Origin: Bdellovibrionales bacterium
Lineage (GTDB): Bacteria > Bdellovibrionota > Bdellovibrionia > Bdellovibrionales > JAUICD01
Assembly (NCBI GenBank): GCA_965203875.1
Contig: OZ241914.1
Location: forward strand, 553,145-617,144
Length of the DNA: 64,000 nt
Reading direction: 5' to 3'
A program made the position numbers and the translations under genes. Every line of letters starts with the position of its first letter. The first letter of the stretch is position 1. Below the pieces are notes generated by a model. The model made no database searches. It was not told the DNA's origin and saw only the letters and a list, made by a program, of their open reading frames with translations. Shown here piece by piece: positions 29,839-63,823 of this stretch.

Positions 29839-30678
29839 CTACCGTACTTTGTCACGATACGGTCTATACTCTGCATTAGAGTTTAATACTCTAGGTAGAG
29901 TAGGCCTCAGCAATGTACGTGCTTTGGAGTTTTTCCTGAAATCCTCAAAATGTGCGTGATACTGATACAAATCTATGGGTAGCACATGTCTAGCTCTATG
30001 ATCAAAGCCAAGCTTTAACTTTGCCATTGCATCAACACTTGCACCATTTTCAATTAATAATTCGGCAGCTTTCAAATATCCGTACTTGGCTGCTTTGTGT
30101 AGTGCTGTTGTTCTATTCTTCTTAACAGCAGCATTTACATCACTTCCGTTATCAATCAACAGCTGCATTTTCTCAAGCTTTTGTTTACTTTCACCAGATG
30201 ATGCTAATACCATCAAAGGAGTAGCACCGTCATAGGTTCTTCTTTGATCTAACAGTGCACCGCTGTCTTCGCTTGAAAGTTCTATGAAAGCTTTAATTAA
30301 TCCAAGTGGGGTATTTCTTTTTTCAGCGTAGTGCAGTCTGTTTTCACCCCCTCTATCTACTGATCCTAAATGTAGGCCATTTTCTGCCAATAGGACTAGT
30401 GTAGACACACCCTTTACTGCATGTGCAAGTGTTTTGCGAGACCGTCCAAACTTTGCATTTACATTAGCTCCCTGACCTATAAGATACTTAATTCGATCTA
30501 GCTTTGGCCTTCGTTTAGTAACTGCACTAAAAAGTTGTTCATCTAATTTTCTTTGTTCCAACATCAAAGCTTGAGTACAAGCGGAGGATGTTGTGCTACC
30601 TGAAACTGAGGTATGTGCACATACCAAAAAGAAAATACAAAATATAACACAATTTTTCACCGCAAAACAGTAACACAT
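29839..30678 (-). CDS. Secreted ankyrin-repeat protein
   Basis: Signal-like N-terminus (VIFCIFFLVCAHTSVSG) and ANK motifs (…TALHKAAKYGYLKAAELLIENGASVD…, GQGANVNA…). It is a tandem paralog of the downstream gene. Confidence 0.8.
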   Translation of the reverse strand: MCYCFAVKNCVIFCIFFLVCAHTSVSGSTTSSACTQALMLEQRKLDEQLFSAVTKRRPKLDRIKYLIGQGANVNAKFGRSRKTLAHAVKGVSTLVLLAENGLHLGSVDRGGENRLHYAEKRNTPLGLIKAFIELSSEDSGALLDQRRTYDGATPLMVLASSGESKQKLEKMQLLIDNGSDVNAAVKKNRTTALHKAAKYGYLKAAELLIENGASVDAMAKLKLGFDHRARHVLPIDLYQYHAHFEDFRKNSKARTLLRPTLPRVLNSNAEYRPYRDKVR

Positions 30679-30774
30679 ATCTTACAAAATGATAAATACT
30701 TTCATGATCAACGTTTGTAAAATGTGAGTAACTTTTTCAATAGATGTAGGTTATGGAAAACTCTAGACTTTGCA

Positions 30775-30902
30775 AAACTTGTTCACCATACGCAACAAAT
30801 CTTAGTGTAAGGCTTTCAAGCCAGTCGTAGACTGGCGTACCTCGGAAAGCCTTACACTAAGATTTGTTGTATTAAAAACTCGATCAAAAATGAATACCCT
30901 TA
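30775..30902 (-). repeat. L-module plus class-B long hairpin immediately 3' of rpoN
   Basis: Minus-strand reading directly after the rpoN TAG: TAAGGGTATTCATTTTTGATcgagtttttaatacaac…. A perfect 25-bp inverted repeat follows (30793-30817 caacaaatcttagtgtaaggctttc / 30845-30869 gaaagccttacactaagatttgttg) enclosing an inner hairpin ccagtc-gta-gactgg. Confidence 0.85.
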
Positions 30903-32351
30903 CTAATAAAACCTCTTCCTTCTCCTGGAAGAAGGTATCCCCAAACGCTCCCTATACTTAGACACAGTCCTTCTGGCTACGTCAATTCCACTGGCTCTTA
31001 ACATAGTCCAGAGCTTAGAATCCGAATAAGGTTTTTTTGGATCTTCATTATCTATAATATTTTTAATCTGTGATTTAACCTTGTTGCTAGCAACAAACTG
31101 ACCGCTATCACTAGATACACCAGAATTAAAAAAATACTTAAGCTCAAAAATACCTCTAGGAGTATGCATGTATTTATTAGTAGTCACTCTAGACACTGTT
31201 GACCCATGCAAACCCACGTCATGAGCTATATCTCTTAAAATCATGGGCCTAATAAAATCCTTACCTTTTTCAAAAAATTCCATCTGATGTTTCACTATGC
31301 TACTAGCCACCTTGTATATAGTTCGCTGCCTCTGATCAATAGAATTTATTAAAAAACGAGCAGACTTCAACCGCTCCCTTATATAATTCTTAGCCTCACT
31401 CTTTGCCAAAGAACTAGAACGAAAAGTCTTTTTATAAAAATTAGAAATTCTTATTCTAGGCACGCCTTCATCATTGAGTGATACGACATAGCCACCTCGT
31501 TGTACTTTATTAACATACACATCAGGAACAACATATTGAGTTTCGTTATTATCAGGTGAAAAAACAAAGCCAGGTTTAGGATCCATATCAAACACTATCT
31601 GACACAGCTCTTTTACATACTCGATGCTAAGTTTCATTTTTTTAGAAATGGTTTTATAATCCCTATTCTCCAAATTAGTTAGATGGTTTTGTACCAACTC
31701 TACCACATCCTTTGTATCTTCTTCCAAATGCTTGGCCTGGATCAAAAGACATTCTTTTAGATTCCTAGCACCTACACCAGGTGGATCAAATTCATGAAGC
31801 AAAACCAGATTTTCCTCTAAAGCCTCTAATTCAATACCCACCTCTTCAGATATTTTTTCAAGTGGAGTTTTTATATAGCCATCGTCCTCTACGTACTCAA
31901 CTAATTTACCTACAACATGAACTTCCTCATCACTGAAGCCGCTAAGCCCAACCTGCCAATTCAAATGATCAGAAAGAGTCCTAGAAGAAGATATTACGTT
32001 TTCATAACTCCTGGCTTCATCCTTGCTATATTTGGTCACGGTTTGATCTGTACCACCTGCACTATCTACATACTTTTCCCAATCGAAGTCGTCTTGATCT
32101 GCTTTTCTTGGATCATCATAAGACTCCAGATCACTTTCCTTAGAATCTCTTAACTCACCACCTTGTAGATCTTCTGCTTGAGTATCTGTTATTTCTTCTA
32201 AAACGGGATTTTCTTCCATCTCCTTTCTTATAGCTATTTCTAATTCAATCCTGGACATTTGCAATAATTTGATCGCCTGCTGAAGTTGAGGGGTAATCCT
32301 CAAAGTTTGTATCTGAGACGTATTCAAAGTCTGTTTAAATTGCTGAGACAT
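30903..32351 (-). CDS. rpoN: RNA polymerase sigma-54 factor
   Basis: N-terminal Gln-rich region I (LNTSQIQTLRITPQLQQAIKLLQMS), an HTH region and the RpoN box ARRTVSKYRE near the C-terminus. Confidence 0.95.
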   Translation of the reverse strand: MSQQFKQTLNTSQIQTLRITPQLQQAIKLLQMSRIELEIAIRKEMEENPVLEEITDTQAEDLQGGELRDSKESDLESYDDPRKADQDDFDWEKYVDSAGGTDQTVTKYSKDEARSYENVISSSRTLSDHLNWQVGLSGFSDEEVHVVGKLVEYVEDDGYIKTPLEKISEEVGIELEALEENLVLLHEFDPPGVGARNLKECLLIQAKHLEEDTKDVVELVQNHLTNLENRDYKTISKKMKLSIEYVKELCQIVFDMDPKPGFVFSPDNNETQYVVPDVYVNKVQRGGYVVSLNDEGVPRIRISNFYKKTFRSSSLAKSEAKNYIRERLKSARFLINSIDQRQRTIYKVASSIVKHQMEFFEKGKDFIRPMILRDIAHDVGLHGSTVSRVTTNKYMHTPRGIFELKYFFNSGVSSDSGQFVASNKVKSQIKNIIDNEDPKKPYSDSKLWTMLRASGIDVARRTVSKYRERLGIPSSRRRKRFY

Positions 32352-44822: not shown

Positions 44823-45270
44823 AGGTCTTCAATTTTATTTAAGGCCCTTCGTTTTTAATAAATGTACACTGGCGTAACGATTAGGCCAAAGGCCGAAAGT
44901 GAAGCCAGGATGCATTTATTAAAAAAGTTGTGCAACGTTCAAGGTATATTCCAACAGATTCCCTAAGGCCCTTCGTTTTTAATAAATGTACACTGGCGTA
45001 ACGATTAGGCCAAAGGCCGAAAGTGAAGCCAGGATGCATTTATTAAAAAAGTTGTGCAACGTTCAAGGTATATTCCAACAGATTCCCTAAGGCCCTTCGT
45101 TTTTAATAAGTACATATAGTTAAACGGTCCGGCCGAAGGCCAAAGTGAAGCTAGCTGTTATTTGATAAAATGTTGCCCAACGTTCAAGGTAGACTATAAA
45201 AGAATTGTCGTAAAGGTCTTCGTTTTTAATAAATGTTTACCAGCTCCCAAGGTAGATTATAAAAAAATTT
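44821..45270 (+). repeat. Mixed tandem array of hairpin-repeat units
   Basis: A truncated L-module lies at 44821-44840. Two identical 124-bp units start at 44841 and 44965. A third unit with a different hairpin starts at 45089. A hairpin-less L+R unit lies at 45212-45270. The first TAA of the array is the stop codon of the lspA-like gene (44820-44822). Confidence 0.95.
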
Positions 45271-49792: not shown

Positions 49793-50674
49793 GTGTCTAA
49801 TACTTACCAAGTGTTACACAAGCCAGTCTTATTAAACGAGATTATAAAAAGCCTAAGTGAAATGGATAGGGTCACAAGCATTTTAGACGCTACCTTTGGA
49901 AGAGGTGGTCATTTGGTAGCCATTCACAATGCATTTAGAAAAGCAAAAATAGTAGCTATCGATAGAGACTTAGAGGCCATACAATTTGCAAAGGATAACG
50001 TTTCAAAGTTATTTAACCTTGACAGTATTGAGATTCATCACATGAACTTTTCTAGAGCTTATACCCTAAAAAAAACTTTCGATGCAATTATTGTAGATCT
50101 AGGAGTATGCTCCTCACAACTGGAGAGTGCACATAGAGGATTCAGTTTTAGATTGGATGGGCCACTTGATATGCGGATGAATACCGAGGAAAAGTTATTG
50201 GCTTCACATTTAGTAAATAATTTAAACTATAAACAGCTCTGTGAGTTGTTTATTAAATATGGCCAGGTGACAAGACCACAAAAAGTAGTTAATGCTATTA
50301 TACATCATAGAAAAAATAAAAAAATAGATTCAACTCTTGAGCTTGCAAATATTATTACCACACAAAATAAAAAAACTAAAATGCATCCAGCTACAAACTA
50401 CTTTATGGCATTGAGAATTAAAGTAAATAATGAACTAGATAGTTTATCAGAATCCTTAGATTCTTTAATAGACCAACTACTACCTGGTGGTCGTTTGATG
50501 GTTATATCGTTCCACTCGCTTGAAGATAGAATTATTAAGTTTAATTTTAAAAATAGTAGAGTAGGAAAACAGTTAAATAAAAAAGTGATAAAGCCCAGCC
50601 AGGATGAGATCAAAGATAATCCAAGGTCTAGGAGTGCAAAACTAAGAATTTTTATTAAAGGCCCTTCGTTTTGA
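49793..50674 (+). CDS. rsmH: 16S rRNA (cytosine1402-N4)-methyltransferase RsmH (MraW)
   Basis: HKPVLLNE, DATFGRGGH, VDLGVCSSQL, ISFHSLEDRIIK and NPRSRSAKLR. GTG start. The last 5 codons and the TGA lie inside a repeat L-module. Confidence 0.9.
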   Translation: MSNTYQVLHKPVLLNEIIKSLSEMDRVTSILDATFGRGGHLVAIHNAFRKAKIVAIDRDLEAIQFAKDNVSKLFNLDSIEIHHMNFSRAYTLKKTFDAIIVDLGVCSSQLESAHRGFSFRLDGPLDMRMNTEEKLLASHLVNNLNYKQLCELFIKYGQVTRPQKVVNAIIHHRKNKKIDSTLELANIITTQNKKTKMHPATNYFMALRIKVNNELDSLSESLDSLIDQLLPGGRLMVISFHSLEDRIIKFNFKNSRVGKQLNKKVIKPSQDEIKDNPRSRSAKLRIFIKGPSF

Positions 50675-50998
50675 CAAATGCTTGCTAGTGTAGTGGAAAA
50701 ACCGAAGGTTTTGAAACGGAACTAGGCGAGCATTTGATCAAAACGTTGTGCAACGTTCAAGGTAGACTACGAAAGAATTGCCTAAAGGTCTTCAATTTTG
50801 TCAAATGCAAGCTAGCGTAGTGACAAGACCAGAGGTCTAAACGTAGCTAGGCTTGCATTTGATAAAATGTTTACCAGCTCTCAAGGTATATTCCAACAGA
50901 CTATCTAAAGGTCTTCATTTTTAATAAGTGCACATAGCGAAACGGCAAGGCCGAAGGCCTGAGTATAGTTATGCATGCTTATTAAAAATTGAAAACCT
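50657..50998 (+). repeat. Array of three hairpin-repeat units with three different hairpins, between rsmH and ftsL
   Basis: Units start at 50657, 50784 and 50907. The L-modules (aaaggcccttcgtttt / aaaggtcttcaatttt / aaaggtcttcattttt) and R-modules are conserved, and the hairpins differ. Unit 3 ends with aaaaattgaaaacctc, an inverted copy of an L-module. Confidence 0.9.
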
Positions 50999-63297: not shown

Positions 63298-63385
63298 TGG
63301 TGCCTCCGGGGAGACTCGAACTCCCAAGGTGATGAACACCGGTGGATTTTGAGTCCACTGCGTCTACCAGTTCCGCCACAGAGGC
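63298..63385 (-). tRNA. tRNA-Leu (anticodon CAA), CCA encoded
   Basis: Reverse complement GCCTCTGTGGCGGAACTGGTAGACGCAGTGGACTCAAAATCCACCGGTGTTCATCACCTTGGGAGTTCGAGTCTCCCCGGAGGCACCA. Acceptor GCCTCTG/CGGAGGC (one G-U pair), anticodon arm GTGGA-CTCAAAA-TCCAC, a long variable arm and T-arm GGGAG-TTCGAGT-CTCCC. Confidence 0.9.
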
Positions 63386-63519: not shown

Positions 63520-63650
63520 TGTTCATCGAAGTTGAACTTACAATGAAGATAGATGTGTGGTTTGTAGAGGCTTTCAAGCTGCCCAAAAGAGCAGCGTACC
63601 CCAGAAAGCCACACACCCATCTTCGTTGTATTGAAAAACAAAGATTAAAA
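63520..63650 (-). repeat. Second class-B long hairpin element
   Basis: It shares with 30793-30869 the core ggctttcaagc-[inner hairpin]-gcgtacc-nnn-gaaagcc and the flank ttgttgtatt[ag]aaaaac. Its outer stem (acaatgaagatagatgtgtgg / ccacacacccatcttcgttgt) and inner hairpin (gctgc…gcagc) have different sequences. Confidence 0.75.
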
Positions 63651-63654
63651 ACTT

Positions 63655-63789
63655 TAGGCCTCAAGAAAATCTTTCGGAATATACCTTGAACGTTGGTGAA
63701 CATTCTATCAAATTCTTGCCTAGTTTAGTTACAAGACCTTCGGTCTTTCCACTACACTAGCAAGCTTTTGATAGAATCAAAGACCCTTA
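63655..63789 (-). repeat. Hairpin-repeat unit (class with ctag…cactac…ctagc hairpin)
   Basis: It is similar to the reverse complement of unit 50784-50906: ggaatataccttgaacgttggtgaacattctatcaaattcttgcctagtttagttacaagaccttcggtctttccactacactagcaagcttttgatagaatcaaagaccctta. Confidence 0.85.
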
Positions 63790-63823
63790 ATCAAAACACC
63801 CCTTGCCCTAAAAAGGGAAGGGG
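63790..63823 (-). terminator. Possible rho-independent terminator for a minus-strand transcript entering from the right
   Basis: GC-rich stem cccctt(g)ccc / gggaagggg (63799-63823) with an A5/T5 loop. On the minus strand it is followed by tgttttgatt. Confidence 0.4.

Follow-up and report, generated by a model that had tools for sequence, protein, structure and literature searches.

A probable dispersed palindromic DNA repeat beside rpoN and tRNA-Leu in a Bdellovibrio-like symbiont lineage

The window, by which we mean the whole 64,000-nucleotide stretch analysed from a Bdellovibrionales bacterium, carries two copies of a long hairpin of a second class (class 2), one directly after rpoN and the other close to a tRNA-Leu gene. 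The features at the two sites are given below in minus-strand order.

30903..32351, minus strand: rpoN (sigma-54), 5' neighbour of copy 1 (ORF; Pfam Sigma54_AID/CBD/DBD; Bdellovibrio-type homologues), with its stop TAG at 30905-30903
30912..30934, minus strand: terminator-like hairpin (8 pairs, 4 of them G-C) and then the T-run TTTTATT, overlapping the rpoN stop, ahead of the repeat
30883..30902, minus strand: L-module TAAGGGTATTCATTTTTGAT, directly 3' of the rpoN TAG; like modules precede copies 2 and 3
30793..30878, minus strand: class-2 copy 1, recognised by sequence, folding and covariance model R1 (113.9 bits)
30878-30866, minus strand: copy 1, TTTTTAATACAAC
30869-30845 / 30817-30793, minus strand: copy 1, perfect 25-bp stem
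30844-30837, minus strand: copy 1, NNN and GGTAC
30836-30820, minus strand: copy 1, inner hairpin GCCAGTC-TAC-GACTGGC (7 bp)
30819-30811, minus strand: copy 1, TT-GAAAGCC
30749..30792, minus strand: 3' flank of copy 1, with CGTAT, GGTGAACAAG and the R-tail-like stretch AAGTTTTGCAAAGTCTAGAGTTTTCCATAAC
29839..30678, minus strand: ankyrin-repeat gene 3' of copy 1 (ORF; Pfam Ank), strongly divergent between strains
63799..63818, minus strand: terminator-like G+C-rich hairpin and T-run heading the copy-2 repeat stack
63657..63798, minus strand: unit of the main 125-bp repeat (hairpin and R tail), stacked ahead of copy 2 (blastn matches to the arrays 50649-50925)
63639..63656, minus strand: short L-module TAAAGTTTTTAATCTTTG ahead of copy 2
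63539..63638, minus strand: class-2 copy 2, recognised by sequence, folding and model R1 (122.5 bits)
63638-63625, minus strand: copy 2, TTTTTCAATACAAC
63624-63611, minus strand: copy 2, 5' arm
63610-63604, minus strand: copy 2, GGCTTTC
63603-63596, minus strand: copy 2, TGG-GGTAC
63595-63578, minus strand: copy 2, inner hairpin GCTGCTC-TTTT-GGGCAGC
63577-63569, minus strand: copy 2, TT-GAAAGCC
63568-63559, minus strand: copy 2, 10-nt segment TCTACAAACC
63558-63545, minus strand: copy 2, 3' arm
63544-63539, minus strand: copy 2, ATTGTA
63298..63385, minus strand: tRNA-Leu(CAA), ~150 nt downstream of copy 2

Both hairpins are real copies of one repeat, each of about 90-110 nt, and have in common the core GGCTTTC-NNN-GGTACGC-(7-bp hairpin)-TTGAAAGCC, the stem base ATACAAC/GTTGTAT and an L-module 5' of each. 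On the minus strand, the order at copy 1 is rpoN TAG, L-module TAAGGGTATTCATTTTTGAT, CGAG, TTTTTAATACAAC and the hairpin, whose arms (30793-30817 / 30845-30869) are 100 % complementary over 25 bp, as the first-pass annotation had described, and enclose GGCTTTC-CGA-GGTACGC-CAGTC-TAC-GACTG-GCTTGAAAGCC. Copy 2 (63539-63638) has the same order of parts and retains GGCTTTC-NNN-GGTACGC, GCTTGAAAGCC and the flank TTTTT[A/C]AATACAAC, but compared to copy 1 it has TGG, another inner hairpin, other mid-arms and an added TCTACAAACC after GAAAGCC, a 10-nt segment of the family that copy 1 does not carry. The outer arms had been called entirely different, which goes too far since the stem base CAAC/GTTG is common to both copies and 7 of 14 arm positions agree; in addition, other family members have arms that fall between those of copies 1 and 2. 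The pattern GGCTTTCNNNGGTACGC, with 14 specified letters, has exactly two matches in the window, a number reached in 0 of 100 shuffles, and folding compared to shuffled sequence gave z = -7.1 and -7.7 for the two copies.

Class 2 belongs to the modular L-hairpin-R system of this lineage, as it has the TAA-initial L-module, a hairpin start with T-run and AAT and, behind copies 1 and 3, an R-tail-like stretch; the start itself, TTTTT[A/C]AATA, is the same as in the 125-bp units. The reading of the hairpin as a second class in the same L-module context has held up, and the L-module also fronts copy 3 (see below) and several loose contig ends. The R-tail-like stretch after copy 1 was likened to the R tail of the 125-bp units (44926-44964) by eye and carries no score. 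At both window sites the L-module (TAAGGGT...) begins right after the terminator-like hairpin and T-run, and at rpoN this hairpin sits inside the end of the coding sequence (30912-30934). The 125-bp units (44841-44964 compared with 63657-63790) resemble class 2 in having an outer stem, an asymmetric loop and a G+C-rich apical hairpin, with GTAACG-like and GAAAG-like letters in the internal loop, and class 1 and class 2 may be distant relatives.

A role of the element as terminator or stabiliser of the rpoN transcript had been raised in the first-pass annotation. Terminator-like hairpins lie ahead of the repeat at 30934-30912 (rpoN) and 63818-63799 (copy-2 stack), and terminator scans gave no site at the class-2 hairpins, a U-tract being absent on either strand. 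In gene sense the class-2 hairpin has a T-run before it and non-T sequence after it, and in the other sense an A-run follows. Intrinsic terminator identity was rejected for the class-2 hairpin, which does not combine a G+C-rich hairpin with a direct U-tract. Since rpoN has its own hairpin and U-tract upstream (30934-30912) and the element has none, a function of class 2 as rpoN terminator or stabiliser is unlikely.

RpoN is of the Bdellovibrio type, and an identical RpoN is encoded on a 1,239,795-bp ENA contig, which represents a sister strain and not the window itself; the next RpoN relatives have 77 %, 75 % and 70 % identity. Sister and window are 99.6 % identical across 11.1 kb at the right end of the window and ~95 % identical across 7.5 kb around rpoN, while rpoN itself differs by 0.35 % between the strains. 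After rpoN in the 77 % relative the class-2 element is absent, and a short, different hairpin is found behind an L-like TAAAGG. A secretin and T2SSE ATPase gene pair adjoins rpoN in the 77 % and 75 % relatives (L018:7063-9442, L019:1920-4320, L020:14206-16605), and in the lineage studied here this pair lies ~10 kb past the window end, a local rearrangement.

A third complete copy was found in the sister genome (L022:14062-14189), ~13 kb beyond the window end, with a score of 86 bits. It sits between an AcrB-like gene and a 147-aa gene, is co-oriented with its neighbours, and is preceded by the L-module TAAGGCACTAAAGTTTTTAATCAAGC; the sequence TAAAG-TTTTTAAT... fronts copy 3 and several loose contig ends, and one copy-3 arm matches a loose end from the window's own sample. 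An L-module thus stands ahead of all three full copies and of several loose ends, and copies 1 and 3 are each followed by an R-tail-like stretch (likeness by eye, unscored). The rpoN terminator and the ankyrin gene flank copy 1; copy 2 is placed between divergent genes, namely tRNA-Leu on the minus strand and a plus-strand gene, and copy 3 comes after the AcrB-like gene. The claim that copies are co-oriented with their neighbours therefore stands in so far as all three full copies match flanking genes, but copy 2 has no upstream co-oriented gene.

Further copies are evident from the Logan contigs of the sample's own sequencing runs, in which the summed word depth rises from 17 to 161 over the copy-1 core and from 14 to 254 over the copy-2 core, and contigs pile up 10-18-fold over the core. 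In run X1, 10 contigs meet at copy 1 and 15 at copy 2, with unrelated loose ends that carry other arms and flanks, and in one contig the core is joined directly to an inverted L-module. There are two alternative 7-bp apical hairpins: the copy-1 type occurs in at least four further contigs and the copy-2 type in at least nine, mostly as GCTGCTC-TTTC-GAGCAGC (minus-strand sense). A walk through the sister genome by exact protein look-ups, extending ~56 kb past the window end, gave one further copy, and no added copy was picked up by the covariance model, which was run on the window, on 21 kb from the 77 % relative and on the remaining sister-genome loci. Taken together, three full copies per ~120 kb examined and the depth figures suggest a family size of ~10-30 copies per genome. 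The possibility that only these two copies exist and relatives lack them is thereby removed, since more than two exist and related strains carry them.

The anatomy of the unit was derived from an alignment of five sequences from three loci, in which the stem base ATACAAC / GTTGTAT is kept and the mid-arms differ yet stay complementary. Four of the five carry the 10-nt segment after GAAAGCC, in the variants TCTACAAACC, TCTCCAAGCC and TCTCTAAGCT; it ends in AAGCC, AAACC or AAGCT, which is able to pair with 5' GGCTT, and GAGGT or GGGGT can then pair with GCCTC to give a near-continuous rod with small internal loops. The full unit is a rod of ~110 nt consisting of base, mid-arms, the core GGCTT(TC)/GGTAC/apical hairpin/TTGAAAGCC and the 10-nt segment. 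Two pairing registers fit, with 91.8 % and 92.3 % of cells paired (three independent loci only) and 10 and 12 pairs changed on both sides, respectively, again from three loci. The covariation score was 0.33-0.35 compared to 0.19-0.20 in shuffles, and none of 500 shuffles reached the observed value. The co-variation of the helices proposed earlier is borne out by these figures (~92 % of cells paired and 10-12 two-sided pair changes at three loci). The junction model proposed with it is a possible pairing register, but only one of two, owing to the extra 10-nt segment in copy 2 and most members. Loss of this segment, by a deletion between repeated AAGCC, accounts for the clean look of the copy-1 stem in the window. 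Kink-turn and sarcin-ricin/loop-E motifs were considered for the internal loop and set aside, as a comparison by eye with their consensus rules showed no fit.

In the window strain, as in most contigs, the core letters do not vary. The junction nucleotides had been described as conserved, a description that fails beyond these, as the junction is overwritten in the sister's copy 2, where CTTGAAAG is replaced by CGTAAAAG, and decayed in copy 3, whose core is altered at three places (GATACGC, AGCTTGC, GCTGATC). The first-pass annotation had taken the element for a structured RNA or a structure-recognised DNA element, and while covariation agrees with this, covariation in a DNA palindrome cannot separate selection on an RNA from DNA-level processes. 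Comparison of the strains points to DNA-level processes.

At the rpoN site, seven 5'-arm substitutions and a single core substitution separate the two strains, together with indels of 10 nt and 1 nt. The 3' arm of the sister is the same as in the window, and its 5' arm is ACGACGAAGATGGGTGTAT, which is identical to the copy-2 5' arm at 24 of 26 positions and close to other family members; the resulting stem has four mismatches and three G-U pairs. As all seven arm differences fall in one arm and the adjacent rpoN differs by only 0.35 %, this is patch replacement and not point mutation. In a sponge-metagenome relative (run X8, reconstructed from tables) the arms are like those of the window, but include one double change of U-A to G-C and two G-U pairs. 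Because this more distant relative has window-like arms, the sister's arm is the likelier derived state, and would have arisen by gene conversion from another copy. In copy 2, six positions differ within 18 nt of the core, and the flanks are identical for hundreds of bases. Two of the changes in the sister (CTTG to CGTA) make the inner stem TACGCTGCT/AGCAGCGTA, of 9 bp, and one change (GCCTC to GCCCC) lies opposite GGGG. Such changes bear the signature expected of template switching in a quasi-palindrome, by which part of the junction would have been overwritten; two papers describe template switching as a documented route that creates and maintains perfect hairpins (PMC8794818, PMC7202029). 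Three modes of change were seen, namely a whole-arm swap to a family-typical arm, a 10-nt deletion and palindrome lengthening. No filled/empty polymorphism between the strains was seen at the three sites. The family is multi-copy, lies in intergenic mosaics, is kept in place in close strains and is altered in multi-base patches.

Two positions at the tip of the adjoining 125-bp unit also differ between the strains (63738, 63746), and eight of the 44 strain differences in the 11.1 kb fall in the apices of two repeat hairpins (63738, 63746; 63568-63585); mutation or conversion seems to be concentrated at hairpin tips. The ankyrin-repeat genes (window 29890-30530 compared with L021) are up to ~20 % divergent, compared to 0.35 % in rpoN, and the ankyrin region just 3' of copy 1 is a sharp hot spot of divergence or recombination.

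Searches outside the lineage were negative. The comparison with Rfam gave no family at gathering score, the whole window matching only tRNA, and at E<=10 only microRNA-precursor-like and similar generic hairpins were obtained, at 15-27 bits against thresholds of 35-135. Exact-core scans gave 7 matches in genome_contigs and 10 in metagenome_contigs, all attributable to chance in unrelated taxa and without long hairpins, the genome of the window evidently lying outside both collections, and protein searches with spurious ORFs crossing the element gave no candidates. On this evidence, the family is private to one lineage of small-genome, Bdellovibrio-like symbionts. The precomputed Pfam lists that cover ~56 kb of the sister genome beyond the window contain no Y1/HUH transposase or RAYT, nor any enzyme able to move the element, and none of the three copies is flanked by a direct target duplication. 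An apparent defence or mobile island lies in the sister genome ~45-70 kb past the right end of the window (L024:9036-19181 and L025/L026). It contains a BglII-type restriction-modification pair, a gene for a 2169-aa reprolysin-like protein, a Zorya-like set (ZorA-like, OmpA-like, EH_Signature, SNF2 helicase, Helicase_C+HNH) and at least four PF04754 'Transposase_31' (Rpn/YhgA-like) genes with HTH_Rpn_C, some of them truncated; the covariance model gave no class-2 copy near these Rpn-family genes.

We consider it probable that class 2 is a dispersed non-coding palindromic DNA repeat, the second hairpin module of the L-hairpin-R system, which changes by gene conversion and probably template switching and has no role for rpoN or tRNA-Leu. 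Class 2 would then be an alternative hairpin module in the frame (L-module, hairpin, R-tail) of the main 125-bp repeat. At the DNA level, gene conversion of short patches from copy to copy would spread the family or at least homogenise it, and intrastrand template switching in quasi-palindromes would keep the stems paired and sometimes lengthen them, possibly helped by selection for a foldable strand. Individual copies would have no specific function for rpoN or tRNA-Leu, and read-through transcription of a copy would yield no more than a long double-stranded RNA stem. Across copies, folding energy shows no consistent preference for one strand. Several observations speak against the DNA-repeat reading. 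No enzyme able to move the element was identified, and neither an empty site nor a target duplication was seen, so that mobility enters only by inference. In most copies the unpaired core letters are conserved better than the arms, which could instead reflect recognition by a factor, and all three copies share the orientation of flanking genes, with several imperfect pairs being G-U only in the GGUAC sense, as a transcribed functional RNA would also predict.

Such an RNA, cis-acting or small, would present GGUAC opposite UUGAAA on co-varying helices, where a protein or an RNase would read them; it might serve, for instance, in processing or stability at a position between a terminator and the gene that follows. 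The covariation (92 % of cells paired, 10-12 two-sided changes), the co-orientation of three of three full copies and the core letters invariant in the window strain and most contigs are in line with it, as is the folding of window copy 2 and the sister's copy 1, whose imperfections are G-U in the GGUAC sense, which makes this sense 8-9 kcal/mol more favourable. However, copy 3 folds slightly better in the opposite sense and window copy 1 and the sister's copy 2 nominally so, partly via flank pairs, and the junction has been overwritten in one copy (the sister's copy 2) and has decayed in another (copy 3). Moreover, Rfam gave no match, a terminator-like hairpin lies ahead of the repeat at two sites, the contexts differ (after rpoN, between divergent genes, after an AcrB-like gene) and the 77 % relative has no element after rpoN, so that we regard a functional RNA as unlikely. 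An argument for RNA from the strand asymmetry of one-sided G-U pairs was dropped, as copy 3 has A-C mismatches and copy 2 one C-A in the GGUAC sense.

Mobility of the hairpin itself, as a non-autonomous element inserted beside L-modules by a putative structure-specific enzyme that, as in REPIN/RAYT or IS200/IS605, acts on single-stranded DNA in folded form, would fit the conserved asymmetric core on variable arms, the constant L-module / TTTTTRAT association, the many copies and the several PF04754 genes that the sister genome has 45-70 kb past the end of the window. Nevertheless, the Pfam lists for ~56 kb beyond the window contain no Y1/HUH transposase, the three sites show no presence/absence polymorphism between strains and no target duplication, and the Rpn-family genes of the island have no class-2 copy nearby. 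We rate this explanation as rather unlikely. Chance similarity or an assembly artefact, for which only the presence of just two copies in the window could speak, is already refuted and has practically no probability left, as two core matches never arose in shuffles, independent Logan contigs from several runs reproduce both copies exactly and a separate ENA assembly has copies at the same sites. Finally, we speculated, as a long shot, that the conserved asymmetric core (GGUAC opposite UUGAAA, with competing GGCUU pairings) is the handle of a putative lineage-specific factor that swaps hairpin cassettes into the L-R frame on a folded single strand. If true, this would be a cassette-exchange system for intergenic hairpins, with classes 1 and 2 and the two apical subtypes as alternative cassettes.

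Read as a dispersed DNA repeat, class 2 is comparable to several known families. Like the REP/BIME sequences and REPINs of Enterobacteria and Pseudomonas, it is a short non-coding, intergenic, multi-copy and lineage-specific palindrome, and those too are often stacked in mosaics with other modules and keep their stems paired despite sequence drift. REP sequences, however, have ~20-40 nt and a 5' GTAG head and usually flank a RAYT Y1 transposase gene (PF01797-type), whereas class 2 is a rod of ~90-110 nt with conserved apex and stem base and no GTAG head, and the Pfam lists of the ~56 kb beyond the window contain no RAYT. Correia elements (CREE/NEMIS) of Neisseria, with ~100-150 bp, are likewise one long hairpin near gene ends or starts with subtypes that differ by internal deletions, but their 26-bp terminal inverted repeats are conserved, and they duplicate a TA target and carry an IHF site inside. 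In class 2 the mid-arms vary and the apex is kept, no duplication was seen at the three copies and there is no sequence likeness to Correia elements; towards its ends, class 2 conserves the stem base ATACAAC/GTTGTAT as well as the T-run and A-run that flank it. In the modular BOX elements of Streptococcus pneumoniae and neisserial intergenic mosaic elements (NIMEs), as in the repeat system described here, inner modules that are interchangeable or repeated (here hairpin class 1 or class 2) are framed by constant ones (here L and R); their sequences and hosts are unrelated, and class 2 differs in its long self-complementary inner hairpin with an asymmetric core. Ripley-type template switching in quasi-palindromes, as described in PMC7202029 and PMC8794818, gives clustered multi-base changes in an imperfect inverted repeat, and in the sister's copy 2 one arm has likewise been made the exact complement of the other, with an inner stem of 9 bp. 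This is a mutational mechanism and not an element family; it is inferred here from the comparison of two strains alone, and part of these data can also be accounted for by gene conversion from another copy.

In conclusion, class 2 is new as a sequence family, and the kind of bacterial intergenic repeat to which it belongs is well known. Two near-identical closed genomes give a rarely available view of how hairpin stems change, which is here by whole-arm replacement, deletion between short direct repeats and palindrome lengthening and not by slow paired point mutations, a caution against taking covariation in palindromic repeats to prove a functional RNA. To the symbiont, the class-2 repeat is probably neutral or selfish DNA, and it is a further well-documented example of hairpin repeats in which the tip is conserved and the arms co-vary.
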